Assembly (NCBI GenBank): GCA_040753435.1
Contig: JBFMEN010000003.1
Coordinates: 10,916 to 74,915 of the forward strand
From: Candidatus Omnitrophota bacterium
Lineage (GTDB): Bacteria > Omnitrophota > Gorgyraeia > Zapsychrales > JANLHA01
Reading direction: 5' to 3'
Length of the DNA: 64,000 nt
The notes beneath the pieces were generated by a model, which did no database searches, was not told where the DNA came from, and saw only the letters and a program-made list of their open reading frames with translations. A program made the translations under genes and the position numbers. Shown here piece by piece: positions 43,683 through 64,000 of the stretch; the first letter of the stretch is position 1, and each line of letters opens with the position of its first letter.

Positions 43683-43702
43683 CATTTATTTAAAAAAGAA
43701 AA

Positions 43703-43990: not shown

Positions 43991-43998
43991 CGAATCCT

Positions 43999-44718: not shown

Positions 44719-44734
44719 TGATGAAGGGAAGGGC

Positions 44735-45337: not shown

Positions 45338-45427
45338 CTTAATAACAGGTGACGAACAAAGAGTGGTGAGATGTCATGGTTCAGGTTGTTTGTAAACCGT
45401 CGCCTGTTATTTTAAAAAGGAAAAAAG

Positions 45428-45727
45428 ATGAATCGAATCGGGATTGCGGCGAGCAAGATTGCCAAGGGAAATATTTTTGTTTTTAACGTCTGCGTCGTCT
45501 TCTTCGTATTTTTATTGTCATTTCTCGTTTTCATTGTTGCCGGACTCGTCATTATGCTGGCGTTGATCGTTTTAGGGTATGTCGTGAATGGTTTTCTACC
45601 CCAGGATCTTTTGACAGAATGGAAAAGTATTGTTGCCGTATGCATGGCGACCCTGACCGCGGTTGTCTGTTTTTTTGCTATTGTCGCCTTGATTCAAAAC
45701 ATCAAATTCAAATTGCCAGGGGAATAA
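45428..45727 (+). CDS. Small 2-3 TM membrane protein (hypothetical)
   Basis: 99 aa hydrophobic ORF upstream of the sensor kinase. Confidence 0.4.
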   Translation: MNRIGIAASKIAKGNIFVFNVCVVFFVFLLSFLVFIVAGLVIMLALIVLGYVVNGFLPQDLLTEWKSIVAVCMATLTAVVCFFAIVALIQNIKFKLPGE

Positions 45728-45734
45728 TCAATAT

Positions 45735-47726: not shown

Positions 47727-48063
47727 TATGAAAGAAGCTCTGGACAGGGTGCAGGATGACCGCGAATTGTTATTTGAACTGTTTGATATTTTTCAGGACG
47801 ATTTTAAGGTAAAGCGTAAGGAGATCCAAAAGGCGCTGGATCAAGGGGATTGCGAAACGGTTCGCAATCTTGCCCATTCCTTAAAGGGCGCCGCAGGGAA
47901 TATTTCCGCCAAAAGACTCCAGGCACTTTTTCTGTTTGTTGAAGAAAAGTCTGCCGCAGGCACTCTTTCCGAGATAGGAGGAAGGTTGACAGAGTTAGAC
48001 AGGGAATTTGAAGAATATAAAGTAGAGGCCCAAAAGCTGAGAAGTGAACGGGGTCTTCTGTAA
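47707..48063 (+). CDS. Hpt (histidine phosphotransfer) domain protein
   Basis: AHSLKGAAGNISA phospho-His motif. It overlaps the HK stop. The start was trimmed from 47608. Confidence 0.7.
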   Translation: MDMKVIDMKEALDRVQDDRELLFELFDIFQDDFKVKRKEIQKALDQGDCETVRNLAHSLKGAAGNISAKRLQALFLFVEEKSAAGTLSEIGGRLTELDREFEEYKVEAQKLRSERGLL

Positions 48064-48078
48064 ACGGATTCGCAAAGA

Positions 48079-49101
48079 ATGAGAAACTTTGTTTTCACAA
48101 TTGTGGTAATTTCCGGCTTGCTTCTTGGAATAGTGCTCGTATTGTTGAATACGACGATTCTAGTCAACGCTTTGCTGCCTGAAATTATTAATGAGCACGT
48201 GAAAGCATTTTCCATTGAGGAGTTCAGGTGCGGGAGCCAGACCAGCCGCTTGCCGGATTTGTTGTTCCTGTACAATGTGAAGTTCAAAGTCAGGAAAGGC
48301 GACCGGCTTGTCGACGTCAGTGTGAAGGAAATCGCTATCCACGAGTTCATGGATTTCGTTAAGCATTTTGAAACGCTGGGGATGTCCGCCAAGGGAATTA
48401 ACGTTGAGACAAAAGGATTTTCAGCGAAAAACGGTCAGTTGCAGGTCGTCATCGGATTGAAAGACCGTGTGGCCAGATATGCGGAAGGAGCAGGTTATAT
48501 CAAGAATTTCGAGGCCGGCGCATATTCATTTAATAAAGTGGTAGGGCATTTCAAGATTAATCCTGTTAAAGTTGAAGTCTTTAACGTTGAAGGCAAGATG
48601 TATGATGGCGATTTTACAGGACAGTTAACGCTTGATTATAAACCGCATTTCAATTTCGCTCTCTGGTCGGAGTTTAAAGGGATCCAGACGGCTTCAGTCC
48701 AAAAGATACATCCCGGGTTTTTTAAAACCATCAGGGGTTCCCTTGACGGATCCCTTCGTGTGGTTGGAGGGGAAGAGGTCGATATTTTTACCGTTATCTT
48801 TTTGGCCAGGAAAGGCTTGGCGATTACGCCGCATGTTTTTCTTTCGATGCGGGGCGCTTTTGATGAAGAGGAGGAGGCTGAACTCAAACGTCTCGCCGAG
48901 AATAATGCTGCCCTGACCGTCGAAAAGGGGGTTCTTCATATTCAGAACAGCCGCGATGAGAACGTGATGATGATTTTCGACATCGAGGAGGAAATCAATC
49001 ATTTTCTGCTAAAAGGGCGCTTCCCTTTGAAATGGGAAAAAGGGTTTAAGGAATTTTTGTTTCCCGTCATCGAAGACCAGGAGCCTGCCGGTGCCAGTTA
49101 A
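48079..49101 (+). CDS. Hypothetical N-terminally membrane-anchored beta-rich protein (AsmA-like?)
   Basis: 340 aa with an N-terminal TM segment and no catalytic motif. Confidence 0.45.
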   Translation: MRNFVFTIVVISGLLLGIVLVLLNTTILVNALLPEIINEHVKAFSIEEFRCGSQTSRLPDLLFLYNVKFKVRKGDRLVDVSVKEIAIHEFMDFVKHFETLGMSAKGINVETKGFSAKNGQLQVVIGLKDRVARYAEGAGYIKNFEAGAYSFNKVVGHFKINPVKVEVFNVEGKMYDGDFTGQLTLDYKPHFNFALWSEFKGIQTASVQKIHPGFFKTIRGSLDGSLRVVGGEEVDIFTVIFLARKGLAITPHVFLSMRGAFDEEEEAELKRLAENNAALTVEKGVLHIQNSRDENVMMIFDIEEEINHFLLKGRFPLKWEKGFKEFLFPVIEDQEPAGAS

Positions 49102-49777
49102 TATTGAGTTATGGATCGTTGTTGGTTTTCTTTTCGGTTTATTTGTTCTCGGGCTGGTTTTTTTAATGTCTCTGGAGCGAAAAAAGGCCCGTTCTCCGCG
49201 CCGAGTCAAACCATTGAAGGAAAAAGAACAGAAAGACTGGAGGGATGCGGCGCTGCGTTTGGAAAAACATGTTATTGAACTTCGCAAAGAAAGTGCCGAT
49301 TGGCATAAACAGGTCAAAGGCCTGCAGAAGGATTTGGAGATTTACCAGAAAAAATATGAAGATCTCTCAATCAAGCTCGATCGGGAAAAGACCTGGGAAC
49401 AGAAAGAATCCGCAGAACGGGAGAAAAAGAACCTGAGGATAAGAGAGCTGGAAAACGAAGTCAAGCGCGCGGAATCCCAGCTGGAAAAAGAGCATATGGA
49501 GTTCGTCTTGATCAGGCGGCAGAATGACGATTTCAGACAGGAGACCGAGAGGCAGACGGAGATGATCCGGCAGTTGAACGGTGATCTGGAGAAGGCCAAG
49601 GCCCAGACGGATGTTTACCGGAAAGAGATCCTGGAACTGCGGGCGGAAAATAAAAAGTTGTCCAAGCGCCACGATGACGTTCAGTGGATCGCTAAAAGCG
49701 TCCATATGCAAGTGAAAGATGAGCTCCGGCGGAAAACAGAGGAGCTTGAAAAGCTCCGGTCAAATAACAGCAACTAA
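49091..49777 (+). CDS. Membrane-anchored coiled-coil protein (hypothetical)
   Basis: N-terminal TM segment followed by about 190 aa of K/E-rich heptad repeats. Confidence 0.5.
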   Translation: MPVNIELWIVVGFLFGLFVLGLVFLMSLERKKARSPRRVKPLKEKEQKDWRDAALRLEKHVIELRKESADWHKQVKGLQKDLEIYQKKYEDLSIKLDREKTWEQKESAEREKKNLRIRELENEVKRAESQLEKEHMEFVLIRRQNDDFRQETERQTEMIRQLNGDLEKAKAQTDVYRKEILELRAENKKLSKRHDDVQWIAKSVHMQVKDELRRKTEELEKLRSNNSN

Positions 49778-49812
49778 ATTCGAAATACGAATATCGAAAT
49801 CCGAAGGAAGGA

Positions 49813-51021
49813 TTGCGTGCTTGGCATTTCGGACTTTTAATCCATGCAATGATTCATTTTTCCAAACGTACTGACTGGGATCTCAGTCAGAATGAATTAA
49901 CAAATATTCAGAACGCTCATAAATCCTCCGGAAGGAGGATTTATGATCTTACGGTTTCCAATCCGACCGTTTGCGGAATCGATTTTCCTCAGGCAAAAAT
50001 CGATCAGGCATTTCATCATCAGGAAAATTCAGTCTATCATCCTCATCCCCGGGGGCTTGCAGTTGCCCGGGATGCCGTTCGGGAATATTACGCTCAAAAG
50101 GGAGTCAAACTTTCTGCCGATCAGATCTTTTTGACCTCCAGCACGTCGGAAGCCTATAGTTTTCTGTTCCGTCTTCTTGCAGATCCTTACGATGGTGTTA
50201 TTTTTCCGAAACCCAGTTATCCTTTGTTTGAATTTCTTTCTGATCTCCATGATTTGAACTGGGCGACGTATCAACTTGTTTATGAAAACGGCTGGCGTCT
50301 TGACGAGGTTCTTTTCAGATCGGCGATGGAAAACAATCCGAAGGCGATTGTCCTGGTCAATCCCAATAATCCAACCGGTTCCTGCCTGAATAAGGGCGAG
50401 CTGGATCTGATTTATTCCGCGGCTGCTCTAAGCGACGCGCCGATCATTTGCGATGAAGTGTTTTTGGACTACAGTTTTGATGAAACCAAGGAAATCCGGA
50501 CATTGGCCGGGCGGAAAGATCACCTGACTTTTGTTCTGGGAGGCGTTTCGAAAGCCCTCGCCTTACCCCAGATGAAGTGTTCATGGATCGCTGTGTCAGG
50601 TCCGCAGAAGGATGTCAGCGATGCGCTTTCCCGTTTAGAAGTGATTGCCGATACGTATCTTTCCGTTAACACACCGGTCCAGAATGCCTTACCGGTGCTC
50701 ATGAATCTTCAGCCAGAAATCCGGTCAAAAATCATGGAACGGGTATCTTTGAACAGAAATTTTCTGTCTGAAGCCGTGAAGAGTTTTAAAGGAGATTCTG
50801 AGTTGCTGAGGGCCGATGGTGGATGGACCGCAGTCTTGCGCTCTTCAGGAGCCGATGAAGAGCAGCTTGTGGTGCGTTTGTTAAGAGAGAAGGACGTTCT
50901 TGTTCACCCGGGATACTTTTTTAATTTTCAGGAAAGCGGGTTCTTTGTGATCAGTCTCCTTCTTCAGGAAGAAATTTTTCAGGAAGGGATCCGGCGGCTT
51001 TTAACCATGCTTCGCAGATGA
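49813..51021 (+). CDS. PLP-dependent aminotransferase class I/II
   Basis: YDLTVSNPT substrate loop and SKALALPQMKCSW (Lys-PLP region). The start is uncertain: the ORF-track start is TTG, and an internal ATG lies at about 49849. Confidence 0.75.
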   Translation: MRAWHFGLLIHAMIHFSKRTDWDLSQNELTNIQNAHKSSGRRIYDLTVSNPTVCGIDFPQAKIDQAFHHQENSVYHPHPRGLAVARDAVREYYAQKGVKLSADQIFLTSSTSEAYSFLFRLLADPYDGVIFPKPSYPLFEFLSDLHDLNWATYQLVYENGWRLDEVLFRSAMENNPKAIVLVNPNNPTGSCLNKGELDLIYSAAALSDAPIICDEVFLDYSFDETKEIRTLAGRKDHLTFVLGGVSKALALPQMKCSWIAVSGPQKDVSDALSRLEVIADTYLSVNTPVQNALPVLMNLQPEIRSKIMERVSLNRNFLSEAVKSFKGDSELLRADGGWTAVLRSSGADEEQLVVRLLREKDVLVHPGYFFNFQESGFFVISLLLQEEIFQEGIRRLLTMLRR

Positions 51022-52925
51022 ATACCACTGATCTGAAAAAATTGTTGGACAATGTCTGGGTCAGGGGAGCTTTCCTTGCGCTCGTCGTGCTCTTGTGTTA
51101 TTCCCAGGCAATGAAGGCGGGTTACATCTGGGACGATGATTACCTGGTGACCCGGAATCCGTATTTAAAGAGCGCGAACGGTTTAAAAGAGCTATGGTTT
51201 AACTTCCGGTCGCGCTCCCAGTATTATCCTGTGGTGTTCAGCGTCTTCTGGGTTTTTTATCACTTGTGGGAACTGGATCCGTTCGGATATCATTTAGCGA
51301 ATATCATTCTCCACATCGGGAACGCCCTTCTCATTTGGGCGATTTTCAAGAAACTGGATATCCCCTGGGCATACTGGATTGGCTTTGTTTTTGCCGTCCA
51401 TCCCGTTCACGTCGAATCCGTCGCGTGGGTCTCGGAGTTGAAAAATACCCTTTCAGCATTTTTCTTCTTGCTGACGGTCCTTGTTTACCTTGGGATTTAT
51501 CTCCCCGACTGGAAGAGATGCTCTCGTCCGTTTATTTATGCTTCTGCCCTTGGCCTGCATTTACTGGCCTTATTCAGTAAAACCGTCACGTGCGTTTTCC
51601 CCGTCATTATGCTCATCGTTTTATGGTGGAAGAAAAAAAGCCTTCAATGGAAAGATGTGTTAATGCTGGTCCCGTTCTTTCTGCTGGGGTTAATGATGGG
51701 CCTCGTGACCGTTTGGATGGAGGTTCATCAGGTAGGAGCCGATGGAGCGGAATGGCAGCAAACGCCGGTAGAGAGGTTTTTGATTGCGGGGCGGGCGCTT
51801 TGGTTTTATCTGGCAAAACTTGCTCTTCCAGCGAATCTGATCTTTACATATACCCGCTGGCGGATTGATGCCGGCGCATTTTGGCAATATTTATATCCTG
51901 TTTCGTTCGGCCTGTTGATGCTGACACTCTTTATTAAATCTTCCAAATGGGGAAGAGGCTGGCTTGCGGGATTGTTATATTTCACGATGGCGCTGTTTCC
52001 GGCGTTAGGGTTCTTTGATTTATTTCCGATGCGTTTTTCCTATGTCGCCGATCATTTTCAATACCTGGCCAGCATCGGGCCAATCGCGCTCGCGATCTTT
52101 TTATGTTATTTGCTTTGGCGGAAAAATTTTTATGAAACCCGTCTTGCCCTGGGCGTTGTTTTTTCTGCCGTCGTTATTCTTTTCGGCTGGCTGACATTCA
52201 AACAGACGTTTATTTATAAAGACAAACTGACCCTGTTTAATGACGTCATTGAAAAAAATCCGGACAGCTGGATGGCGTACAATAACCGCGGAGACATTTA
52301 TTTTTCTCAGGGGCGGCTGGATCTGGCGGAAAATGACTTTGCCAAAGCCTTATCGCTATTTCCCAATAATTCCGATGCCTTGAATAACAACGCGCTGATT
52401 TTTTATTTTAAAGGCGAGTTTGAAAAGGCGTTCCATTTTTTCAGCCTGGCGATCAAGGCGCGTCCGGAATTTTATGAGGCGTACGGGAACAGGGGTATGG
52501 TGTATCGCCAGAATGGGGAATTCGAAAAGGCGCTGGACGATTTTAACCGGGCCCTGAAGATCAACCCGTATTATCAGGAGGGATATAACCGTCGCGCGAT
52601 CCTGTTTTCCATGATGGGCAATCACGACGCCGCTCTGAAAGATCTGAGCGCTGTTATAAAAATCGATCCGGCTTTTGTCGGCGCTTACGCGAACCGTGGT
52701 GTTATCTATTTAAAAAAAGAAGATTACCCGCGCGCATTGGAGGAGTTCAATCTTGCCCTGCGGGTTGACCCTTCGCTGGGGACGGCCTATCTGAATCGGG
52801 CCGCGGTTTGGAAACATTTGGGGCGGGTGGATTTGGCTCTGGCGGACCTTTTGAAGGCCCGGACGATGGGTCTCAATGTAGATCCACAGGAAATCAAAGA
52901 TCTTCAGGAAAAGGCACGACGGTAA
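51018..52925 (+). CDS. Membrane glycosyltransferase-like (DUF1736/PMT-type) N-terminal domain fused to TPR repeats
   Basis: A polytopic N-terminal half, then 6-7 TPR units (AYNNRGDIYFSQGRLDLAENDFAKAL...). Confidence 0.8.
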   Translation: MNTTDLKKLLDNVWVRGAFLALVVLLCYSQAMKAGYIWDDDYLVTRNPYLKSANGLKELWFNFRSRSQYYPVVFSVFWVFYHLWELDPFGYHLANIILHIGNALLIWAIFKKLDIPWAYWIGFVFAVHPVHVESVAWVSELKNTLSAFFFLLTVLVYLGIYLPDWKRCSRPFIYASALGLHLLALFSKTVTCVFPVIMLIVLWWKKKSLQWKDVLMLVPFFLLGLMMGLVTVWMEVHQVGADGAEWQQTPVERFLIAGRALWFYLAKLALPANLIFTYTRWRIDAGAFWQYLYPVSFGLLMLTLFIKSSKWGRGWLAGLLYFTMALFPALGFFDLFPMRFSYVADHFQYLASIGPIALAIFLCYLLWRKNFYETRLALGVVFSAVVILFGWLTFKQTFIYKDKLTLFNDVIEKNPDSWMAYNNRGDIYFSQGRLDLAENDFAKALSLFPNNSDALNNNALIFYFKGEFEKAFHFFSLAIKARPEFYEAYGNRGMVYRQNGEFEKALDDFNRALKINPYYQEGYNRRAILFSMMGNHDAALKDLSAVIKIDPAFVGAYANRGVIYLKKEDYPRALEEFNLALRVDPSLGTAYLNRAAVWKHLGRVDLALADLLKARTMGLNVDPQEIKDLQEKARR

Positions 52926-52930
52926 ACTCC

Positions 52931-53650
52931 ATGAACCTTGTTTTATTTGAGAAAAAGGATTTTGTTGATGATCGGCACGTGTTGCTTAAAGGACGCCAGT
53001 TTCTTCATGCCAGAGATATTCTTCATATCAAAACAAATGACGTGATCCGGGTCGGCGCGCTGGGAGGTCTTCTGGGCAAAGGCGCGGTTGTTGAATTGGG
53101 AAAGGATTCCCTGAAACTGAGAGTCAGTCTCGATGAGGAGCCCCCGCAAAAGTTGGGAATAATTCTGATCCTTTCTCTGCCGCGTCCGCTTGTTTTCCGA
53201 AGACTTTTATCCGCTGTCGCTGCCATGGGTGTCAGGCAAATTGTTTTTATCCAGAGCGTTCGTGTTGAAAAAAGTTACTGGAACAGCCCAGCCTTAAATG
53301 AAGAAAATGTCCGGCAGGCGTTGATTTCGGGATTGGAGCAAAGCAGGGACACGCTTTTACCCGATGTCAGTTTTGAAAAAAGATTTAAGCCCTTCATGGA
53401 TAAGCGTTTGCCTTTGCTTCGCGAGGGGAAGAAATGTTTCCTGGCTCATCCGGAGAAGGCGAAACCATGCCCATCGAATGTGAAGGGACAGATGGTTCTT
53501 GCGGTTGGTCCGGAAGGCGGATTTGTCCCATCTGAAGTTGAGGCCTTCGAGAAGGCCGCTTTTTTGTCTGTTCATCTCGGTCCGCGTATTCTGCGGGTTG
53601 AAACTGCCGTCCAGGCGCTGCTCGGCCGCACAATGTCTTTGACCCGGTAA
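52931..53650 (+). CDS. rsmE: 16S rRNA (uracil1498-N3)-methyltransferase RsmE
   Basis: PUA-like N-terminus, then the SPOUT C-terminus (VAVGPEGGFVPSEVEAF...LGPRILRVETA). The start was trimmed from 52808. Confidence 0.85.
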   Translation: MNLVLFEKKDFVDDRHVLLKGRQFLHARDILHIKTNDVIRVGALGGLLGKGAVVELGKDSLKLRVSLDEEPPQKLGIILILSLPRPLVFRRLLSAVAAMGVRQIVFIQSVRVEKSYWNSPALNEENVRQALISGLEQSRDTLLPDVSFEKRFKPFMDKRLPLLREGKKCFLAHPEKAKPCPSNVKGQMVLAVGPEGGFVPSEVEAFEKAAFLSVHLGPRILRVETAVQALLGRTMSLTR

Positions 53651-53805: not shown

Positions 53806-56800
53806 TTGAGAAAAATTAACTGTTTAAAATTTCATGCTGCGGGAAAGGCCCTGACCTGTTTTTTGGCTTTTTCCTTTGTGTTTAATCCTGTTATTGGGTA
53901 TGCCCAGATTGGATTAAACCCGTCATCTTCCCCAGTTCTTCCTGTTCCAGGAGCCATGGTTCCTTTGAGCGGCGCTTTTGACCCGGCCATCATCAATGGG
54001 ATAAAGATATTTCCCGATAATCCTTTTCGATTAGAGTTTCTTATTGGTTCAGGACAATCGGAATTGGAAGGGGATGACTTCAGGGAAGAGTCTAAAAAGC
54101 TTGTTCGGTATTTTTTGGCTTCATTGACTGTTCCCGACAAGGAACTCTGGGTCAACTTATCGCCCTATGAAAGAGATCGTATTATACCCGAAGCCTTTGG
54201 TATTACTGAAATGGGCCGGGATTTGCTGGCCCAGGATTATTTATTGAAACAGGTAACGGCTTCGCTGATGTATCCGGACGGGTCTCCAGGCAAAGAATTC
54301 TGGCTCCGGGTTTCCGCGAAGGCTTATGAACAATATGGGGTCACCGATGTTCCCGTTGACCTGTTTAACAGAGTATGGGTCTTGCCCGACAGGGCGGTTG
54401 TTTATGAGCAGGGAGATACTGCTTTTGTGATTGAGAGCCGTTTAAAGGTGATGCTGGATTCGGATTACGAAGCCATGCAGGGTTCCCAAGAGCCCAAGAG
54501 CCCAAGTTCCAAAGAAAAAGATTTTACATGGGCACATGGGCACATGGGCACATGGGAACTTGACTCCGGAGAGCTTTCGAAACAAATCGTTCGCGAGGTC
54601 ATCCTTCCCGAAATCGAACGAGAAGTCAACGAAGGAAAAAATTTCGCCCCGTTGCGCCAGATTTACAATTCAATGATACTCGCCACATGGTTTAAACGAA
54701 GTCTGCGGGAAGGTTTGTTGAACAAAATTTATGTCGGAAAGAACAAGATTGAAGGGGTTGATATTAGTGACAAACAGGCCAAAGAGAAGATCTACCAGCG
54801 GTACCTGGAGGCATTCCAGGAAGGGGTTTATAACCTGGTTAAAGAAGAGTATGATCCTGTTCTAAAAGAGATTGTTCCAAAGAGATACACATCCGGAGGA
54901 ATGGAATTCGGGTTGCGGCTGGATCAAACGGTCAAGAATGTCACCAGTCTGTCTTCAGCGCAGTCCAAAGATTTCGCAATGCTGGTTAAAGACAAGGGGA
55001 TCAGGAAGGTTTCCGTTGATCTGGAAAGGTCCGCAAAGACAATCCCTGCTCTAAGTTATGCTATTTATCAAGATGCGGAATATATCAACGGAAGGATTGA
55101 GGGGGGAAGATTATTTCGTCCGGGAGGGGCAAAAGATATTTTTGAATTACGCGTGCACTTGGACGAAACGCCTTTGGATTTCTCTGGGGTTGTTAAAATG
55201 ATCCTTCCGAAAGACGGAACGTTAACTATGTTCGGAAAGGGATATTGGCAGGGTTGGGAGGAATACCGCGGCGAGCCGGTAATTATTGTTATAAACAACA
55301 GAAACGTGGTTGAAGTTTATAATTCACAAAATCAAAAGATTTTCCCATTCGGAAAAAATATTATTTATCCCGGAGGAACGTACCGGAATGGAAAAGTCAA
55401 TGGAACTCCGTTTAACCCGCATGGAGCAAGGACAAAAGTTACGATTAAAGACTATATCGGTGAAAACCCGGAATTCACCGGTGTTATCCACAGAGTTCAG
55501 CTCAATAATCATGGCGGGTTGCCTTCCATGGAATATCTGGGGGTCAAATGGGCTAATATGAGCGGCTATGAAAACGCCTTTGTTACGATCGTAGTCGAAA
55601 AAGGCCGGGCTACGGCGATCTATGATGCGAGCGGGAAACAGATCTTCCCTTTCCCCCATAATTATGTCCATTTTGGGGCTCAATACAAAGACGGAAAAAT
55701 TACCGGCGGCGTTTTGGCAACCCCGCACGGGATTTCCAGCCGTTACGAATTGAACAAGTTGTTATCAGCCGCGAGAAAAAAAGATCCCGGCATGTCCTGT
55801 GTCGTCGAAAAGGTGCCGCTGAATGATAAAGGAGGGCTGACGTATTTCCTGGGGGTCGGCAAGTATTGGGCAGATAAGGCGGGATACGAAAAGGCCCTTG
55901 TTACGATTGTCGTTACTAACGGAGATGAGATTACGGTTTATGATGAGAGAGGAAAGAAGATTTTCGAAAGACTGCGGAAGGAAGAAAATTTCGTTTACTT
56001 AAATGCTCGATATGAGGAGGGGAAAATCGTCGGAGGCACGCTTCTCAATGAACGGGGAACTTTTGACCGGCGGGAGTTAAATAAAATCGTGGCGCCGCAT
56101 CCCGGGTTTACCGGGGTCATTGACAAGGTCCGCTTGTCGTTTAATGGCGGGTTGGTGAAATTTCTTGGAAAAAATGTTTGGATGGGGATGACGGAATATG
56201 CCTATCAGATGGTCACAGTTGTTATGGCCGATGGGGAAGTGACGGAAGTTTATGACAGGAGCAACGAGCCAATATATCCGTTTAAAGAGAATTTTATATA
56301 CAAAGGCGCCCGTTTGGAGAAAGGGAAAATTATCGGGGGAGAACTTGTCAATCCCCAGGGGTTTCTGGACAAAACGTTTATTGGGAAGTATCTGAATGAA
56401 CCGGAAAATGAGGATTTTACGGGAGTTATTGAGACAAGGCTGCTGTTTGATGGAGGACTTCCCGTGGGTTTAGAGGAACCCGGATGGTCGTTACAGACGG
56501 AATATAAGCATAAATTTGTTTTTATAGTGAAAGAAAAAGGGAAGACAGTCGGAATTTATGATGAGGAAGGAACTAGATTATTTCCTTATGACGCAAATTT
56601 TGTTTATTGGAACGCTGATTTTATTGATCGGGAGATTAAGGGAGGAAAGCTCCTGACCCCGGCAGGGGTGAGAACCCGTAAGAATTTAAATGAACTGCTT
56701 GCTGAATATCCGGATTTTACAGGGATTATTACGAAGCTGCCGTTTCACGATTCAGGACGGCTCGGTCAAGTGAAAGATGGAATCTATCTTGACTATGTTT

Positions 56801-59800
56801 CGGCTATTCGTGGGAAGAAAGTGACGGTTAAGCTTGTCAAGGGAGCGGTTGTCGCGATTTACGATGAACGCGGATTTATGGTGTGGTCGGAAAACCGGGA
56901 GAGCGTCGGATTTGATATTTTGAATAGTCTATGGAAGTCGGGGGACCTTCAAAAGTTACTGGAACTTTTCGGTGAAGAGGGAACAAATCGTCTCTTGTTC
57001 TCTTTTTTTGATGATTTGACGCCGAAAAGTTTGATAGACTTTTTTCGGGATTACAGGAGTTTTGGGGTCCGGAAGAAGTTTCGGAAAAAGAAGTATGAAG
57101 AAACATTGAAGCCTTCGGAAATTGTTAAAAAGCTGGGCGCGATCGGCCTGCTTCAGAAACAATCCTCAAAGGCCGACTTTCAGGAAGTTTTACGGCAGCA
57201 GTTATTTTCGCTTGTCTATAGTTCTATTGTACGGGACTATAAATTCATCGATGCGATCGAAAAGGAGGTTAAGAGGAATTCGTTTGATCCGGTTATTAAA
57301 AATGCTTTTGAAGAGGTTATCCGCACTTACAGAGATCTGGGAAATTTTCATGTTGAAGGGATTCGATCCCCTACTCAATTAAGATTTTATCAAAAGCGCG
57401 GAGTCAAGTTTATTCTGGACGCTAAACGAGTTCTCCTGTCTGATCAATCGGGGTTGGGAAAAACTTTACAGGCCTTGACGGCGGCGGTTAATGCTTATGA
57501 TGGAAAAGGCGGGAAAAAGATTCTTATTATCTGTCCGGACGTATCCATCCGTAATACGTGGATTAAGGATATTCAACGTCATTTAAAAGGTGAACAGAAA
57601 ATTTATGTTGTCGGCAGCAAAGCAGACTTTAATTCGATTAAAAAACGGAACGATGCCAGGGACGCAAGGTTTATTATTGCCAATTATGAGGTTTTAAGAG
57701 GGGAAGATGCCGCCGGTCTCAGGCAGAATATAAAGGATTTGGGGATTGATTTTATTATTGCTGATGAGGGGCACAGGATTAAGAACAATTCCCAGCTGAC
57801 TGAGGCGGTCCAGGAGTTCCACGCTCCGTACCAGGTCCTGATCAGCGCTTCCGCCCAGCAGGGAAGGACGATTGCCAAAATTTTTAACCTGCTGAATTGG
57901 CTTTATCCGGAAAGGTATCCGGACAGAAAGGAATTCTTGCGGAAGTACGGTAATGCTGAGGGATACTGGCAGTTGAAGTCTGAAATGAGAGGCTTTATGC
58001 TGCGGAGACATAAATCAGACGTCCTGGCGGACATGCCGGAAATTAACGTGGAGTTTCTTCCCGTGCAGCTTAAAGGCGAACAACTGCGTTTATATCAAGA
58101 GATTGAGAAGGAGTTTGATGAGATTACTGAATCGGGTGATTATCTGCGAATGGGGGGAGTGATCCTGAATTTGATTCGAGTGGCGCTGGATACAGCCTTG
58201 ATCAGAGATATCTTTTTAAAAGATTTAGACGCTCAGGAAATTATTCCGGTTAAAGTGGGAGGGTATTACGGAAGAGTCGGAGACGTGGAATACAGGTTCT
58301 CCTTTTCATTTAAAGATCCGGTTTTTTCTTATACTGATTCATCAGGGAAGAAATATTCTATGAAGGTGAGGGATGGGGACATTGTTCAGATGGGTGGACG
58401 AACGTATGAAATAGGAATTAAGGAAAGAAAATCGGTTTCAGCGAAGTATGAGGCCCTTGACCGTATGGTCGATGACATTGTCGGTGAAAAAAAAGAAAGC
58501 ATGGTGGTTTTTACCGGCGCGCGAAAGGCTGTTTCTTATTTAAAGCAACGATATGAAAAAGAAGGATACGAAGTGGTCGGCATTGATGGAGATGTCAGCG
58601 CGAAAGCAAGGGAAGATATTCTGAAAAAGTTTAATACGGCCGGGAGACCGATTATCCTTGTTTGTACCTATCAAACATTGGGTGAATCCATTGATATTAC
58701 CGGAGCGCATTACGGGGTCTTGCTGGACAGCCCATGGCTTGACCGCGAACAGATCATGGACCGGCTGCATCGATTGGGGCAGCTGCATGATGTCTTGTTT
58801 ACGATTATTGTTGCAAAAGACACCGTCGATGAACATGTAGAGCAGGTCAATATGGAAAGCGATATGATCAAGAGCATTGTTCTTGATAACCTTAATGTTT
58901 ATAACAGGCAAAAGGAATTGAGCAAAAGATTAATTTTGGAGAAAGTCAGAAATAAAGAACTTTATTCCCAACTTAGAAGATTTCAAGAGAAGGTCCGGTT
59001 AATTGGAAGCGACGTGGAGAAAAAGGCCCGATCGGCAAGACTTTTGACTGAATATAAAAAAGGCAATCTGAGCGTTCTTTACGGAAACCATCGTTTCGCT
59101 GCAGAACTTGAAAATATAAACGGGGAGACCGTTTATCTTGACGGCCTTTTGGAGCTTGTGAATATGGTGAAGGATCTAAGTGCCGATTCAAAGAATGCGT
59201 TAAAAGAATTTTTCATTCAACGTTTTAAAGACGAGAGGCAGAAAGATGTCAGGGTTAAAGATATGATCCTGTGGGATATTTGCAATCAAATTATCCCCGG
59301 TTTTATTAATATCGATTATGACGGAAAATTGGAGTTTATGATTGAATGGGGAACTTATATATTAAGAAGGCTGATCGTTAACCCTGACCTCAGTAAGGAA
59401 GAGTTGATGACAGGATTGGGGGATGAAGCCGGAGACCTTTTTAATGACACCATGCATCTTCTCGACACATCGAATATCCTGAAGTTATTTTCTCTGATGA
59501 CGGTCATCCCTCAATCCTATTATTATGAGGGAGAGCTTCTCAGGTATGAACCGGCGATCTCTGTTTATTACGCGAATGGAAGAATCAGGTACTGGGATCA
59601 ACAGATCGTCGATAACATTGCGCCGGGATGGCAGATCAGCGACGGTGAGATTTATTCGGGAATAGAGGGGATTGAGCGGGAAGGCCGGCGGGTCCGGGCT
59701 CTGGAAGAATCAGAGGAGAAGCGTCTGGCCAATCAGATACGGCTGGGGAACAAGGCGGCGGAAAATCTTCTGGTGCGGGCGTATTTCCGAAATTTGAAAC

Positions 59801-60558
59801 CGATCGCGAAACGGGTCATCGAGAGCGGAAAGCTGGAGAAGGCATTCGGTTTAAAAGTCGCCGGTGTTGTGGATTTGGAAAGCCTGGTTTCCGCCGGGGA
59901 AGAGGCATTGGTAGATTTGATTAATGTCTACTCAGAGCACGAGATCTATTACAATACGCCGCTTAAAGATTTTCTCCGGAAACGGTTGAATCCGAGAATG
60001 TATTCGCTCGGGTTTCAGATAGCGGAAGAGATGTCCAGGTCGGTCGACCCTGAAGAATATTATCGAAGCGAATTGCTGAGCGAAGATCCTGTCGACCCAG
60101 GTAATTTGGAAGTGGGTGAACAAAAGAAAATTTTTGCCGGTCTGCTTGAACGGGAAGGTTTTAGCGATATAGAAGCTGAGATGATCATGCTTTTTGTTTT
60201 TGAAGGTTATTCGGAGAAGGAGTTGCTGGAAGAATACTTTCAAAACGGTTTAAGGGATCCGAGCGAACAGGACATACGGTATGTGGAGAATCTTATTGCC
60301 AGCTTTCAACATAAAATGAATGTTTTGGGCAAGGAAAACCTCCTTAATATTCTTGATGAAGGGCTTCCTGTTGATGAGGATGTGGGAGGTATCAATCTTG
60401 ATCCGGCGATCTTGAATATCGAGACCCGTGGCAGCGGTTTGGAGAAAGGCTTTTCCGATATTGATATGACACTGTTTGACGACTCTTCTTTCGCGGGATT
60501 TATTCCTGTGATTATCGACATTGCTCCTGCGAATTTATCAGGGTTTATAGCAAATTAG
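53806..60558 (+). CDS. Giant (2250 aa) multi-domain protein. It has a signal peptide, a conserved about 370-aa N-terminal domain shared with the downstream paralog, 6-7 novel ~90-aa tandem repeats, an SNF2-family helicase (DEXH ATPase plus helicase-C) and a C-terminal sigma-70/ECF-like region 2 plus region 4 module
   Basis: TTG start. Signal-like ..CFLAFSFVFNPVIGYA. N-terminal domain LVRYFLASLTVPDKELWVNLSPYERDRIIP...TWELDSGELSKQIVREVILPEIEREVNEGKNFAPLRQIYNSMILATWFK. Repeats carry V.V.D..G..I(F/Y)PF..N.VY..A.Y..GKI.GG.L..P.G...R.ELNK.....P.FTGVI.K. SNF2 motifs SDQSGLGKTLQAL (motif I), IIADEGHRIKN (motif II), LLDSPW..EQIMDRLHRLGQ (motif VI). C-terminal LGNKAAENLLVRAYFRNLKPIAKRV (sigma region 2.1-2.2-like) and AEMIMLFVFEGYSEKELLEEYF (region 4-like). 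Confidence 0.85.
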   Translation: MRKINCLKFHAAGKALTCFLAFSFVFNPVIGYAQIGLNPSSSPVLPVPGAMVPLSGAFDPAIINGIKIFPDNPFRLEFLIGSGQSELEGDDFREESKKLVRYFLASLTVPDKELWVNLSPYERDRIIPEAFGITEMGRDLLAQDYLLKQVTASLMYPDGSPGKEFWLRVSAKAYEQYGVTDVPVDLFNRVWVLPDRAVVYEQGDTAFVIESRLKVMLDSDYEAMQGSQEPKSPSSKEKDFTWAHGHMGTWELDSGELSKQIVREVILPEIEREVNEGKNFAPLRQIYNSMILATWFKRSLREGLLNKIYVGKNKIEGVDISDKQAKEKIYQRYLEAFQEGVYNLVKEEYDPVLKEIVPKRYTSGGMEFGLRLDQTVKNVTSLSSAQSKDFAMLVKDKGIRKVSVDLERSAKTIPALSYAIYQDAEYINGRIEGGRLFRPGGAKDIFELRVHLDETPLDFSGVVKMILPKDGTLTMFGKGYWQGWEEYRGEPVIIVINNRNVVEVYNSQNQKIFPFGKNIIYPGGTYRNGKVNGTPFNPHGARTKVTIKDYIGENPEFTGVIHRVQLNNHGGLPSMEYLGVKWANMSGYENAFVTIVVEKGRATAIYDASGKQIFPFPHNYVHFGAQYKDGKITGGVLATPHGISSRYELNKLLSAARKKDPGMSCVVEKVPLNDKGGLTYFLGVGKYWADKAGYEKALVTIVVTNGDEITVYDERGKKIFERLRKEENFVYLNARYEEGKIVGGTLLNERGTFDRRELNKIVAPHPGFTGVIDKVRLSFNGGLVKFLGKNVWMGMTEYAYQMVTVVMADGEVTEVYDRSNEPIYPFKENFIYKGARLEKGKIIGGELVNPQGFLDKTFIGKYLNEPENEDFTGVIETRLLFDGGLPVGLEEPGWSLQTEYKHKFVFIVKEKGKTVGIYDEEGTRLFPYDANFVYWNADFIDREIKGGKLLTPAGVRTRKNLNELLAEYPDFTGIITKLPFHDSGRLGQVKDGIYLDYVSAIRGKKVTVKLVKGAVVAIYDERGFMVWSENRESVGFDILNSLWKSGDLQKLLELFGEEGTNRLLFSFFDDLTPKSLIDFFRDYRSFGVRKKFRKKKYEETLKPSEIVKKLGAIGLLQKQSSKADFQEVLRQQLFSLVYSSIVRDYKFIDAIEKEVKRNSFDPVIKNAFEEVIRTYRDLGNFHVEGIRSPTQLRFYQKRGVKFILDAKRVLLSDQSGLGKTLQALTAAVNAYDGKGGKKILIICPDVSIRNTWIKDIQRHLKGEQKIYVVGSKADFNSIKKRNDARDARFIIANYEVLRGEDAAGLRQNIKDLGIDFIIADEGHRIKNNSQLTEAVQEFHAPYQVLISASAQQGRTIAKIFNLLNWLYPERYPDRKEFLRKYGNAEGYWQLKSEMRGFMLRRHKSDVLADMPEINVEFLPVQLKGEQLRLYQEIEKEFDEITESGDYLRMGGVILNLIRVALDTALIRDIFLKDLDAQEIIPVKVGGYYGRVGDVEYRFSFSFKDPVFSYTDSSGKKYSMKVRDGDIVQMGGRTYEIGIKERKSVSAKYEALDRMVDDIVGEKKESMVVFTGARKAVSYLKQRYEKEGYEVVGIDGDVSAKAREDILKKFNTAGRPIILVCTYQTLGESIDITGAHYGVLLDSPWLDREQIMDRLHRLGQLHDVLFTIIVAKDTVDEHVEQVNMESDMIKSIVLDNLNVYNRQKELSKRLILEKVRNKELYSQLRRFQEKVRLIGSDVEKKARSARLLTEYKKGNLSVLYGNHRFAAELENINGETVYLDGLLELVNMVKDLSADSKNALKEFFIQRFKDERQKDVRVKDMILWDICNQIIPGFINIDYDGKLEFMIEWGTYILRRLIVNPDLSKEELMTGLGDEAGDLFNDTMHLLDTSNILKLFSLMTVIPQSYYYEGELLRYEPAISVYYANGRIRYWDQQIVDNIAPGWQISDGEIYSGIEGIEREGRRVRALEESEEKRLANQIRLGNKAAENLLVRAYFRNLKPIAKRVIESGKLEKAFGLKVAGVVDLESLVSAGEEALVDLINVYSEHEIYYNTPLKDFLRKRLNPRMYSLGFQIAEEMSRSVDPEEYYRSELLSEDPVDPGNLEVGEQKKIFAGLLEREGFSDIEAEMIMLFVFEGYSEKELLEEYFQNGLRDPSEQDIRYVENLIASFQHKMNVLGKENLLNILDEGLPVDEDVGGINLDPAILNIETRGSGLEKGFSDIDMTLFDDSSFAGFIPVIIDIAPANLSGFIAN
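55270..56900 (+). repeat. Six to seven diverged tandem repeats of about 270 bp (~90 aa each) inside the giant gene
   Basis: The recurrent protein pattern (..T.VYD..G..IFPF..NFVY..A.Y..GKI.GG.L..P.G...R.ELNK.....P.FTGVI.KV.L...GGL..) was read from the translation. DNA identity between units is low, so the repeats are ancient. Confidence 0.6.
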
Positions 60559-60639: not shown

Positions 60640-63600
60640 ATGAACCAAACGATTACAAAGAACCATTTCAGTACCTGCATCCGTGTCATTTCCAGCTTTC
60701 TTGTTGTCACATTTCTCACAACGACAGTCTTGCCTCCGGGATACGCCCAGACCATCGGCTTGAGTCTTCCGGTTCCCGGCGCCATGGTCGGTCAGAGCCA
60801 GGCGTTTGTTCCGGCGCTTTTAAAAGGCATGACCGTTTATCCCGATAATCCTTTGCAGTTTGATTTCATTATTGATTCAGGACACGAAAAGCTTAAAGAG
60901 CCGGAGCTTAAAAAAGAATCCGGGCGGCTGGTGAAATATTTTCTGGCTTCGATGACAGTTCCGCAAAATGACCTGTGGGTCAATTTATCGCCGAATGAAA
61001 AAGACCGGATTATTCCGGATGAACTGGGCAAAACCGAACTCGGGCGTGATTTGCTGGCGCAGGATTATATTTTGAAGCAATTGACCGCGACCATGATGTA
61101 TCCGGAGGAAGAGCTGGGCAAAAAATTCTGGGAGCGCGTGCGAAAAATCGCGAAGGAGAAATACGGCATTACTGAAATCCCGACGGATACGTTTAACAAG
61201 GTCTGGATCCTTCCCGAAACAGCCATGGTTTATGAATATGAGAATACAGTTTACATTACTGATGCGCATTTGAAGGTGATGCTCGATAGCGATTACGAAG
61301 CGATGCAGCAGAAGGGTGCCCAGGAGCCCAAGAGCCCAGGTTCCCAAGTAAAAGATTTTACTTGGGCACATGGGAACGTGGGCACATGGGAACTTGATTC
61401 CGGTGAACTTTCGAAACAAGTTATTCGAGAAGTCATCCTTCCCCAAATCGAAAAAGAAGTCAATGAAGGAAAGAACTTCGCCACTCTGCGCCAGATCTAC
61501 CATTCGCTCATTCTCGCCAAGTGGTACAAACAAACCGTAAAGAACAGCATCATGTCGCAGGTCTACATCGATCAGAACAAGACCGCCGGCATCGAGATCA
61601 ATGATCCTGCGATGAAGGAGACGATTTACGACCGCTACATGCAGGCCTACAAAAAAGGTGTGTTCAACTATATCAAGGAAGACTACGACGAGCTGAGCCA
61701 GACGGTTATTCCGCGTCAGTATTTTTCGGGTGGTTTCAAAGACTCGGCCATGGTCGTTGAAAAGTCCGACAACACCTTTAAGGTTGCGAAGAGTGAAGTG
61801 GGGGCGGAATACCGCTCTCGCGTCATTGTCAGGCCGACAGCGGCAGCAATTGTTTTCGATGATGATAAATTTTTTCCTGCTCTTTCCAGGCGTTTTGTTC
61901 ATCTGGTTCTGGCGCCCGTTTCTTTGGCAATTTTAGGGGCGGTTCTTTTTATTGCCGTCCCGGGAGAGAACCTGTCGTTTGCCCAACCCGCATCAAGCCC
62001 GACGGTGGAAGCTGTTTCAGAGATTTCAAAATCACTGGATACAGTTCGCCAGGCGAAGATCGACGTCGCGCAGGATGATTATGGATATGAATATTTAATC
62101 ATTAACTTGTCATTTGCGGCTCCGGAAATAGGCGTTAGAAGGCCGGGCTGGAACGTCATCCCGCTGCAAGACAATAAAGTTTTTAAGACTGATCAGGCGG
62201 TGGATCAGTTGTTGCTCCACAAGAACGATCCCCGGGCCGCGTCAGGAATTCTTGAAGCGGCCGGGTTTAACACCCATGCCATGATGGCAGCGGCAAAACT
62301 TGACGAAAAAGACAGGGCCGGCCTTATTCCGATTCTTCATCAAAATTTAAAAAACAGCAGCGATATTATCGTTGAAGGCGCGCTTAAGGCATTGTCTGAA
62401 TTCGATAGCGCGAGTTTGCGATCAGTGGTGCCGGAGTTGCTTAACTTGCTGAACCGGCATAATCCCGGAATAAGGTTAGAAGTCATGAGTTTGATTTTTT
62501 CCAAGGATCTTCAAACATCCGATCCTGATAAATTTGCTTTGGAACTGGCCAAACTGATGAATACGGAACAAGATCATACTGTTTTAGCGGCCGATTGGCT
62601 CGGAGTCGAAAATTATTCCCGGGCCGAACGTCAGGGGAAAATTCCCCAGGTCATGGAGATTGTCGATTCGCTGGAAAGAGAGACGCGCATCATTGCCGCT
62701 TATATCGCCGGAAAGTTGGGGACGAAAGCAAATGGATCTGTTGACGGCTTGATCAGGAATCTTTCGAGTAAAGATGCCGGTCTTCAGCTGATCTCTGCTC
62801 AAAGTCTCGGGAAAATCGGCCCACTTGCCGAGAAGGCCCTTCCCAAACTTGAGGAGATCATGAATACGGCGGGTTATGAAGCGGAACCAAAAAGGGCGGC
62901 CGGGACGGCTTATAAAAGAATTAAGAATATCCCGCTTGATCCGGGAGAGGATAAGGAGACTTCGCCCAGGACGCTTTCCTTTTTCAAAGAAGACGATCAG
63001 GCGATGCTGGCTGCCGATACGGTTGATCTTAAAGAAGTGCTGGCAATGCTTCCCCGGGAACTCAGGGTTGGCAGAAATTCCCGGCGATCAATAGATTTGC
63101 GTTTAATAAGTCCGGATGAGTGGAATGATTTATATCCGCAAGCGACAAACGGTATTTTGTTTCAGGATTTTCAGTCTTCTAGAGGCGGACAGCCGCAGGG
63201 CGACGGGGTTATGAAAATTTCTATCCGGGACGATGTTACCGCGAAGGCCTTTCTTCAGGAGTTTGCCGGACAGGGGCTGCACCGGCGTCTGGGTCTTGAG
63301 GATGAGGGGCTCTTGAAATTAATTGATGAGGTCAGGACCGAGCCGGATCATATCGCGGATACGTTATTTGTTCTCGATGAGGAAATTCAGGGCGTACGCG
63401 CGGAATTAAAAGGCCATGACCGAAAAAAGAGAGAGACGTACTTGCAGTCCCTGCTTCAACGAAGAGAAGATTTGCGTTTGTCTTTGAAGCGGGCCGTTGA
63501 GAAAGCAACGACCGATCCTCAGATTGTCGTGGCGGTGGATGGATCGGGTTTTGACGATGATCATGACAAAAATGGAGGGGCTGAAAGAATTTATGGAATC

Positions 63601-64000
63601 GGGGGAATGATGAAAATTTTTTCCGCCGCGGCGGCTTCGGCCCTGGCGTCTTTTTTCTTTTCTTTTGAGACCGGGGTTATTACCGGGGTTGTCTCCCCGG
63701 GGGCGGGTATTCAATCAATCGCAAAAGGAATGGGGCCAGCTGTTGTAAGTGTTACATATAACGATATTATCAATCAGACACCGGAAGCTGTCGCAGTTTT
63801 TCATGAGCTTGCCGGGAAAGGGGAAATATCAGGACTGGGGCTGATGCTTCAGGACGGATTTGATGTTAATGCGACGAACGATGACGGAGAAACAGCGCTG
63901 ATAACGGCCATTAACCGGCGGCAGGTTGAAACCGTAAAATTTCTTCTTGAGCAAGGCGGTAGTCCTGAGCCCGCCGCGATTAAGTTGGCGGTCGCAAATA
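60640..64000 (+). CDS. Second giant-gene paralog, with more than 1120 aa inside the window and its 3' end beyond it. It has a signal peptide, the same conserved N-terminal domain, a transmembrane helix, HEAT/ARM-like repeats and a C-terminal ankyrin repeat
   Basis: ATG at 60640 with an AAAAGAGGG RBS. The N-terminal about 370 aa are roughly 60-65% identical to the 53806 product (..KYFLASMTVPQNDLWVNLSPNEKDRIIPDELG.. / ..TWELDSGELSKQVIREVILPQIEKEVNEGKNFATLRQIY..). The TM helix is FVHLVLAPVSLAILGAVLFIAVPG (61885..61965). HEAT-like units read LIPILHQNLKNSSDIIVEGALKAL, VPELLNLLNRHNPGIRLEVMSL, GLIRNLSSKDAGLQLISAQSLGKIG. The ankyrin unit is DGETALITAINRRQVETVKFLLEQGG. There is no in-frame stop to the window end. 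Confidence 0.8.
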   Translation, partial: MNQTITKNHFSTCIRVISSFLVVTFLTTTVLPPGYAQTIGLSLPVPGAMVGQSQAFVPALLKGMTVYPDNPLQFDFIIDSGHEKLKEPELKKESGRLVKYFLASMTVPQNDLWVNLSPNEKDRIIPDELGKTELGRDLLAQDYILKQLTATMMYPEEELGKKFWERVRKIAKEKYGITEIPTDTFNKVWILPETAMVYEYENTVYITDAHLKVMLDSDYEAMQQKGAQEPKSPGSQVKDFTWAHGNVGTWELDSGELSKQVIREVILPQIEKEVNEGKNFATLRQIYHSLILAKWYKQTVKNSIMSQVYIDQNKTAGIEINDPAMKETIYDRYMQAYKKGVFNYIKEDYDELSQTVIPRQYFSGGFKDSAMVVEKSDNTFKVAKSEVGAEYRSRVIVRPTAAAIVFDDDKFFPALSRRFVHLVLAPVSLAILGAVLFIAVPGENLSFAQPASSPTVEAVSEISKSLDTVRQAKIDVAQDDYGYEYLIINLSFAAPEIGVRRPGWNVIPLQDNKVFKTDQAVDQLLLHKNDPRAASGILEAAGFNTHAMMAAAKLDEKDRAGLIPILHQNLKNSSDIIVEGALKALSEFDSASLRSVVPELLNLLNRHNPGIRLEVMSLIFSKDLQTSDPDKFALELAKLMNTEQDHTVLAADWLGVENYSRAERQGKIPQVMEIVDSLERETRIIAAYIAGKLGTKANGSVDGLIRNLSSKDAGLQLISAQSLGKIGPLAEKALPKLEEIMNTAGYEAEPKRAAGTAYKRIKNIPLDPGEDKETSPRTLSFFKEDDQAMLAADTVDLKEVLAMLPRELRVGRNSRRSIDLRLISPDEWNDLYPQATNGILFQDFQSSRGGQPQGDGVMKISIRDDVTAKAFLQEFAGQGLHRRLGLEDEGLLKLIDEVRTEPDHIADTLFVLDEEIQGVRAELKGHDRKKRETYLQSLLQRREDLRLSLKRAVEKATTDPQIVVAVDGSGFDDDHDKNGGAERIYGIGGMMKIFSAAAASALASFFFSFETGVITGVVSPGAGIQSIAKGMGPAVVSVTYNDIINQTPEAVAVFHELAGKGEISGLGLMLQDGFDVNATNDDGETALITAINRRQVETVKFLLEQGGSPEPAAIKLAVAN

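Follow-up and report, generated by a model that had tools for sequence, protein, structure and literature searches.

The stretch of DNA analysed here, referred to throughout as the window, comprises 64,000 nucleotides (nt) of contig JBFMEN010000003.1 from a Candidatus Omnitrophota bacterium (assembly GCA_040753435.1), and its subject is the gene that runs off the window's end, termed gene B, together with its same-strand neighbour just upstream, gene A. The Omnitrophota, a widespread group of uncultured and ultra-small bacteria, are thought to live on other microbes. Gene B is an intact, complete and ordinary-sized member of a family of proteins in which a conserved N-terminal head and a conserved C-terminal tail enclose variable cargo, and its interest lies in the family behind it. 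The interpretation tentatively preferred here, held at somewhat less than even probability and drawn from sequence comparison, is that this is an Omnitrophota-specific modular family of Sec-exported proteins in which head and tail would act as family-specific handles for the export, attachment or delivery of swappable cargo.

The gene A and gene B locus

Gene B is a single plus-strand open reading frame (ORF) extending from an ATG at 60640 to the last full codon of the window, 1,120 codons without a stop, with AGAGGG 7 nt 5' of the ATG. Its start lies 81 nt past the stop of gene A (53806-60558; 2,250 aa), and a scan of the intergenic stretch between the two found no terminator-like site. The two products align by BLASTP with 55% identity over gene B aa 10-367 (E = 1e-133) and show no other significant alignment; a tblastn search of the 64-kb window with the head recovered the copies in gene A and gene B and no third. 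The features of the two genes are as follows.

53905..54900, plus strand: paralogous N-domain of gene A (gene A aa 34-365; BLASTP, tblastn)
60385..60555, plus strand: C-terminal module of gene A, GGINLD...GFIPVIIDIAP... (gene A aa 2194-2249)
60640..60747, plus strand: Sec-type signal peptide of gene B (aa 1-36; rule-based, predicted cleavage PPGYA↓QT)
60748..61734, plus strand: N-domain of gene B that defines the family (aa 37-365, C-terminal end ...IPRQYFSGG; 55% identity with gene A)
61316..61393, no strand assigned: in-frame imperfect palindrome in the gene B N-domain, encoding AQEPKSPGSQVKDFTWAHGNVGTWE in a variable surface loop
61741..61752, plus strand: first junction motif of gene B, D-S-A-M (aa 368-371), immediately past the N-domain
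61891..61974, plus strand: strongly hydrophobic helix of gene B, RFVHLVLAPVSLAILGAVLFIAVPGE (aa 418-445), with SRR before it and SFA↓QP after it
62644..62871, plus strand: HEAT repeats of gene B (aa 669-744; Pfam HEAT_2), within a helical cargo region at aa ~450-785
62995..63006, plus strand: second junction motif of gene B, D-Q-A-M (aa 786-789)
63589..63699, plus strand: moderately hydrophobic segment of gene B ending ...GGMMKIFSAAAASALASFFFSFETGVITGVV (aa 984-1020), just N-terminal of the ankyrin module; 19-residue Kyte-Doolittle peak 1.47
63802..63999, plus strand: ankyrin repeats of gene B, from aa 1055 to the window end and reaching aa 1151 in the full protein

The hydrophobic helix, the repeats and the duplicated head of gene B are real and well beyond chance. 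The 19-residue Kyte-Doolittle mean peaks at 2.74 within aa 418-445, the maximum of the protein, the second-highest peak being the N-terminus (aa 8-35). HEAT_2 (PF13646) matches aa 669-744 with 37.2 bits (E = 3.5e-9; gathering cut-off 27.7), and a scan of the full-length protein places HEAT_2 matches in three stretches. Ank_4 (PF13637) scores 26.6 bits on the window part of gene B (cut-off 22.7) and Ank_2 (PF12796) 28.1 bits on aa 1061-1151 of the full protein (cut-off 27.3). An earlier note on this DNA had described two adjacent genes with a common exported-looking head and differing bodies, the second with a hydrophobic helix at aa ~415-440 followed by HEAT and ankyrin repeats and an uninterrupted ORF leaving the window, and all of these observations are borne out. 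Its term 'giant gene' does not survive the recovery of the full-length product.

That product, P0001, is GenBank MEW5894247.1, recorded as 'MAG: ankyrin repeat domain-containing protein [Candidatus Omnitrophota bacterium]' on a 139,678-bp contig; it is 100% identical to gene B over all 1,120 window residues, intact beyond them, and 1,412 aa long, so gene B stops 292 codons past the window end. Past that point P0001 continues with the remainder of the ankyrin module, a third junction motif (D-Q-A-M, aa 1178), a segment of ~150 aa, and a C-terminal module at aa 1332-1392 that reads GGIDMNEINLN...IQGFSPVIIDMVPINSVLPLLGL before a short acidic tail. At 1,412 aa (4.2 kb), gene B lies below both sizes by which giant genes have been defined, an ORF >20 kb (Seymour et al. 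2023, PMC10066038) or a protein of >=10,000 aa (2026 preprint 10.64898/2026.06.07.730766).

The head: a conserved N-terminal domain

The family is defined at its N-terminus by a signal-peptide-like segment followed by a single copy of an N-domain of ~330 aa that ends ...YFSGG. The gene B head (aa 1-365) has both elements and is 50-88% identical to the heads of family members. Alignment of the heads gives 46 invariant positions, four Trp among them and neither His nor Cys. No match to the head was found among Pfam, NCBIfam, PHROGs or PADLOC models or among PDB sequences. An AlphaFold2 (AF2) model of the gene B head, with a mean predicted local distance difference test score (pLDDT) of 73.9 and a predicted template-modelling score of 0.77, contains two beta-hairpins and long helices, with the variable loop disordered, and has no fold match. 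As far as alignment and modelling go, the N-domain appears to be unlike any described domain.

The variable loop of the gene B head is the product of the palindrome at 61316-61393 (two 38-nt arms of 79% complementarity, 2 nt apart; RNA fold z-score -3.8), and the loop corresponds to the low-pLDDT stretch of the model. Gene A has a twin at 54482-54559, likewise with 38-nt arms, the two arms of each palindrome being 76-79% complementary; the palindromes are built of units of ~8 nt, GNNCCCAAG x4 and CATGGGNAC x4, and the rest of the 64-kb window has no copy of the element. Of 65 homologous loops, drawn from other genomes and the window, 21 have RNA fold z-scores below -3, and several loop peptides resemble translated palindromes of the repetitive extragenic palindromic (REP) or miniature inverted-repeat transposable element (MITE) type, for example LSGDP..DSRLRGND and GLIHQTQDKGMI.HAPT. 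It seems that the loop is a hot-spot tolerant of hairpin-forming insertions; alternatively, mRNA structure may be under selection there. The opposite strand of the N-domain coding region also holds a 305-aa antisense ORF (minus strand, 60985-61902), wholly within that region; it is probably spurious, since the longest antisense ORF at the corresponding place in gene A is 107 aa (53832-54155).

The tail and its coupling to the head

A picture of the family as a shared head on differing bodies, as the earlier note drew it, is right about the head and missed a conserved C-terminal module of ~55 aa that closes gene A as well as P0001 and ends nearly every complete member. Its consensus, from an alignment of 92 sequences (91 family proteins and gene A), is vGGIDxNxIxxxRxGxGxxIxFDP(x11)IxGFxPVIINxTPxxSxLPLLGL followed by an E-rich tail; a median of 15 residues follow LPLLGL, five of them acidic and two basic, with no transmembrane (TM) helix. 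By BLASTP, more than 100 of 188 family proteins have a C-terminus that matches the P0001 module, and among the best 120 head matches about 80 carry GGI[DN]xN 50-105 residues before the end, the remainder being mostly on short contigs. The tail has no match among Pfam, NCBIfam, PHROGs or PADLOC models. In an AF2 model of a full-length 623-aa member (P0031), the tail has a pLDDT of 75-84 and the cargo one of 35-57.

Coupling of the two ends was assessed with hidden Markov models (HMMs) of head and tail run on all stop-to-stop ORFs of 81 loci, 79 of them from the genome scan described below, and of the window. Both domains were found together in 50 ORFs, and seven complete head-bearing ORFs had no detectable tail. 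No genuine tail-only ORF was found; the three apparent cases are the 3' halves of broken head-bearing genes (L003, L062 and L039). Within this sample the tail is thus seen solely on proteins that start with the head, which argues against a general sorting tag. Word-indexed searches, first with a single tail and later with a profile of 35 sequences, yielded nothing but uninformative gene fragments of 60-136 aa. The three broken genes are split between head and tail, L003 (JBBRHV010000048.1) by one in-frame stop and L062 and L039 by a frameshift, and could represent pseudogenes, assembly errors or recoding.

Family size and distribution

The earlier note had suggested a modular family, and its scale proves far larger than the window could reveal. 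A search of 1.84 billion cluster representatives with the head (window 60739-61869, aa 34-410) gave matches to at least 8,041 of them at E <= 1e-3, 7,408 at <= 1e-10 and 6,180 at <= 1e-30. In all 150 of the 150 matches listed, the match begins within the first ~70 residues and reaches ~400, in proteins that range from 376 to 4,647 aa. A word-indexed protein search with the head gave more than 4,622 matches, the named ones almost all from Omnitrophota/Omnitrophica. A species-level scan, with one genome per GTDB species, confirmed at least 583 head loci, of which the best 80 are nearly all labelled Omnitrophota/Omnitrophica, unlabelled, or assigned to 'Planctomycetales' third-party annotation (TPA) bins. 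A single genome supplies up to five of these 80, and same-strand pairs within ~6 kb, as in gene A and gene B, occur at no fewer than 15 of the 81 loci examined for coupling.

The records labelled as outside the phylum are P0004 and P0041 ('Candidatus Bathyarchaeia archaeon'), L036 ('Candidatus Elulimicrobium sp.', on a 2,278-bp contig) and many 'uncultured Planctomycetales' TPA bins; because the contigs are short and the labels automated, these are most likely mis-binned or mislabelled Omnitrophota rather than real occurrences outside it. By the available sequences, then, the family appears to be essentially all Omnitrophota-specific, very large, present in several copies per genome and often in tandem. 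The gene B head is 88% and 78% identical to heads from other genomes (P0002 and P0122, respectively) and 55% identical to that of its neighbour gene A, which indicates that the paralogues are lineages of long standing and did not arise by recent duplication in place.

Cargo

The regions between head and tail are highly diverse. They include HEAT, ankyrin (ANK) and tetratricopeptide (TPR) repeats, DnaJ modules, arrays of receiver (REC) domains, GGDEF and PP2C. Also represented are nucleoside diphosphate kinase (NDK), adenylate, guanylate and dephospho-CoA kinases, NUDIX, Maf and dCMP deaminase. Other cargo includes methyltransferases, LpxC, UDP-glucose pyrophosphorylase, aldose epimerase, radical SAM/B12 proteins, sigma/helix-turn-helix (HTH) regions, DprA and, in gene A, an SNF2-family helicase. 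Comparison of close relatives shows that cargo is exchanged between otherwise closely related brackets of head and tail: P0002 shares with gene B the head (88% identity), the ankyrin module (44%) and the tail around a different middle, and P0122 shares head (78%) and tail (67%) around a short, unrelated cargo. No relative of the gene B HEAT region was found among the 188 family proteins. In P0017, which belongs to a distant lineage, the order is that of gene B, namely head, signal-like segment, HEAT, signal-like segment, ankyrin, tail. At the position equivalent to gene B aa 984-1020, P0002 and P0017 each carry a segment that is hydrophobic or resembles a signal peptide.

The order in gene A is a Sec-type signal peptide, the head, a series of ~110-aa repeats, the helicase (SNF2-rel_dom at aa 1195-1442, Helicase_C at 1547-1658) and the family tail. 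An ATP-dependent DNA/RNA motor that follows a signal peptide is difficult to square with a periplasmic function in the producing cell.

Export signals and topology

By their sequence, family N-termini resemble Sec signals of the cleavable type. In a set of 146 the 12-residue Kyte-Doolittle mean of the h-region has a median of 2.6 and the n-region a median of four K/R, and 128 of the 146 have Pro-Pro and then A↓Q (A[QE]) past the h-region; gene B itself has an n-region with K/R, an h-region of 16 residues and the c-region PPGYA↓Q. Under the positive-inside rule such N-termini would place the head outside the cytoplasm. Strongly hydrophobic segments between head and tail are absent from 97 of 129 complete members, single in 26 and more numerous in six. 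For most members, therefore, the entire chain would go out with the head.

The head of gene B had been placed by the earlier note on one side of the membrane and the solenoid on the other. This stands as a textbook topology for gene B alone; it is not a rule of the family, about 75% of complete members having no TM segment, and the charges around the gene B helix resemble those of a signal peptide, with three K/R upstream and none downstream. The sequence that follows, PGENLSFA↓QP, is similar to the protein's own N-terminal PPGYA↓QT. With SRR upstream and an SFA↓Q site downstream, the helix at aa 418-445 looks more like an internal signal peptide than a stop-transfer anchor. Where the first hydrophobic segment falls within 160 residues past the head (n = 27), 15 segments are K/R-richer upstream, as in signal peptides, and nine downstream, as in stop-transfer anchors. 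A parity rule, by which head and tail would have to lie in one compartment and the number of TM segments between them would be even, was considered and rejected, a single helix being the commonest non-zero class.

An alternative to export of the whole protein, and a rather unlikely one, is that gene B encodes an inner-membrane scaffold, its signal peptide cleaved, its N-domain periplasmic, the helix at 418-445 acting as stop-transfer, and the HEAT/ankyrin region and tail remaining in the cell's own cytoplasm to recruit partners to the membrane. A signal peptide combined with one very hydrophobic helix of 24-28 residues would most simply be read in this way, and at least 11 family members have a single strong helix no more than ~150 aa past the N-domain; in P0002, moreover, a basic cluster comes after the last helix, an arrangement that would make the ankyrin module and tail cytoplasmic. 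However, the tails of the 97 members without a helix would then lie across the membrane from that of gene B, the charges and putative cleavage site flanking the gene B helix are the reverse of a stop-transfer arrangement under the positive-inside rule, and the strict coupling of head and tail is left unexplained.

Junction motifs

Cargo modules are set apart from one another by either of two short peptide motifs. D-x-[AS]-M-[LVMAIT] was observed 273 times against 14.1 expected from shuffles (19-fold), and S-S-P-[IVL] 168 times against 8.0 (21-fold). Their use is nearly exclusive, 57 proteins having only D-x-[AS]-M, 39 only S-S-P and one both. Full-length gene B has three motifs (aa 368, 786 and 1178) and gene A has one in 2,250 aa. 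At the DNA level, synonymous positions of the motif are free to vary and the upstream sequence shows no conservation, so the motif is selected as a peptide and not as DNA; a recombination site, or an internal ribosome-binding site with a start codon, is ruled out on the same grounds. The Bacteroidota O-glycosylation motif D-[ST]-[AILMTV] was also considered and, on sequence pattern alone, rejected, since position 2 of the junction motif is any residue.

A few modules open directly past a junction with a twin-arginine translocation (Tat; RRxFLK), Sec (M-K, h-region, AxA) or lipobox-like segment, as if entire precursor genes had been fused in frame after the N-domain. Such starts are seen in P0022 (aa 748), P0024 (aa 397), P0026 (aa 390), P0120 (aa 383), P0017 (aa ~935), P0171 (aa ~389), P0129 and P0058.

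The junctions raise a further alternative, distinctly unlikely in our estimation, in which the family consists of processed polyproteins: once-separate proteins chained together and cut at D-x-A-M or SSSP-V into head, cargo and tail, with modules that bear their own signals exported and the others kept in the cytoplasm. The ~20-fold enrichment of the motifs, their conservation as peptides and their lineage specificity fit such processing, as do their position at module boundaries (for example, ahead of each of the five receiver domains of P0023), the signal-like openings of some modules and the arrangement that P0017 shares with gene B; an exported head and cytoplasmic-type cargo would also be reconciled. 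Against this, no protease was found, and the N-domain has no invariant His or Cys; a hydrophobic segment follows just 3.8% of junctions as compared with 1.7% of random positions; the motif Met is replaced by Q, A or V ahead of many tails; gene A has its solitary motif; and the upkeep of dozens of head and tail copies per genome is left unexplained.

Comparison with known systems

Several described systems resemble the family in part. Cargo of the type IX secretion system (T9SS) of Bacteroidota is likewise confined to one phylum and consists of many dissimilar proteins per genome, with a Sec signal and a conserved C-terminal module, whose genes are scattered rather than placed beside the machinery. 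The Omnitrophota family differs in having a tail of ~55 aa with an acidic extension and an obligatory N-domain of 330 aa besides; no T9SS/Por sorting domain was found on P0001 (Pfam E <= 10, NCBIfam E <= 0.1), and we know of no T9SS-like machinery for these proteins and saw none. Two-partner secretion (TPS) exoproteins such as CdiA, and polymorphic toxins, share a conserved N-terminal domain just behind the signal peptide, exchange of cassettes, short peptides at module boundaries (VENN and DPxGL in those systems) and multiple, commonly tandem, copies. In polymorphic toxins, however, the variable toxin is C-terminal, whereas here the variable part is internal, the C-terminus is conserved and the cargo is housekeeping-, signalling- or repeat-like rather than toxin-like. 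Pfam gave no match to TPS (Haemagg_act), Rhs, PAAR or LXG, and the N-domain model, which is mixed alpha/beta with long helices and no beta-helix, would not correspond to the TPS domain of TpsA/CdiA.

Classical autotransporters need a C-terminal beta-barrel of at least ~250 aa, in contrast to the ~55-aa tail, which has no Pfam match. Sortase and exosortase signals (LPXTG, PEP-CTERM) differ from this tail, which has neither a TM helix nor a basic end. Two resemblances were rejected on sequence pattern alone: LPLLG as an LPXTG signal, for want of the TM helix and basic tail, and GGIDxN as an RTX nonapeptide. The ankyrin/HEAT effectors of intracellular bacteria, such as AnkX of Legionella, are similar in placing ankyrin or HEAT repeats in a host-dependent bacterium. 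Effectors of the AnkX type use a type IV system and have no Sec signals. The NCBIfam model T4SS_AnkX scores 15 bits on P0001, on the ankyrin repeats only, against a cut-off of 1,400.

Within the phylum itself, long and giant proteins have been described that combine a signal peptide and/or TM helices with Pfam domains of cytoplasmic type, among them methyltransferase, HATPase, HAD, NUDIX, radical SAM, REC, starch synthase, HEAT and TPR domains (West-Roberts et al. 2023, 10.1101/2023.11.21.568195; PMC10066038; 10.64898/2026.06.07.730766). The bracket family shares with them the phylum and the domain mixture and reaches 4,647 aa, although gene B itself is far smaller. Term searches of the Omnitrophota literature, including these three papers, found no mention of the N-domain, the C-terminal module or the junction motifs. 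The head-tail domain pair thus appears to be undescribed, with a family logic like that of T9SS cargo and of TpsA or polymorphic toxins, from both of which it differs in being conserved at both ends and variable inside, and without the defining sequence features of either.

A proposed role for head and tail

If the family is one of exported modular proteins, as we tentatively prefer, the signal peptide would carry the N-domain across the inner membrane, and head and tail would jointly provide the handles for a step beyond Sec, whether retention in the envelope or at the surface, passage across the outer membrane, or transfer to a host cell. Dozens of differing cargoes per genome would in this way share one common route. 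The cargo of gene B, with its hydrophobic helix, HEAT solenoid and ankyrin repeats, would be a membrane-associating scaffold for protein binding rather than an enzyme, and the junction motifs would be candidate processing sites.

Several points weigh against this proposal. Much of the cargo is cytoplasmic in type (radical SAM/B12, response regulators, sigma/HTH, SNF2 helicase, nucleotide kinases), and export of an unfolded chain by Sec would not normally give active Fe-S enzymes. The 26 of 129 complete members with a single hydrophobic segment would have head and tail across the membrane from each other, leaving the tail without a fixed compartment unless these helices are not stop-transfer anchors. 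Signal peptides and helices were called by simple rules rather than by a trained predictor, and the AF2 models are only moderate in confidence. No secretion or sorting genes lie beside the family genes, whose neighbours are housekeeping; upstream of gene A, the genes at 40617-53650 encode a GFO/IDH/MocA oxidoreductase, a GT2 glycosyltransferase, SpoU- and RsmE-type RNA methyltransferases, an HD hydrolase, a PAS-histidine kinase-receiver hybrid, an aminotransferase and a TPR protein, all ordinary housekeeping or regulatory functions. With no machinery adjacent, the earlier note's description of such proteins as effectors or injected proteins is still something that we infer rather than observe.

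Cargo that could work solely in a cytoplasm favours either delivery into another cell or cleavage at the junctions with the cargo kept at home. A bolder extension of the export proposal, which we regard as improbable, is that the head-tail bracket marks an unrecognised, phylum-specific route by which dozens of chained enzymes, regulators and repeat scaffolds of cytoplasmic type per genome, and possibly giant proteins too, would be delivered onto or into hosts, with modules freed at the junctions and some re-targeted by their own signal peptides. It is very improbable that gene B is an ordinary HEAT/ankyrin repeat protein whose shared head reflects recent local duplication or an assembly artefact: the GenBank name, simply that of an ankyrin repeat protein, and the modest scores of the repeat matches agree with that explanation, but the head is common to thousands of proteins from hundreds of genomes, the gene B copy is nearer to those of other genomes than to that of gene A, and the identical full-length protein stands in an independent NCBI record.

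Implications

For the long multi-domain proteins of Omnitrophota, one head, one tail and two junction motifs organise thousands of sequences, and the bracket is a signature by which the repertoire of any genome can be catalogued. It also supplies specific peptides to look for in metaproteomes, namely those expected from signal cleavage at A↓Q and from cleavage at D-x-A-M or SSSP, and head and tail together form a defined domain pair for structural and localisation work. Should head and tail indeed be handles for export or delivery, the list of cargo would in effect be the phylum's host-interaction toolkit.

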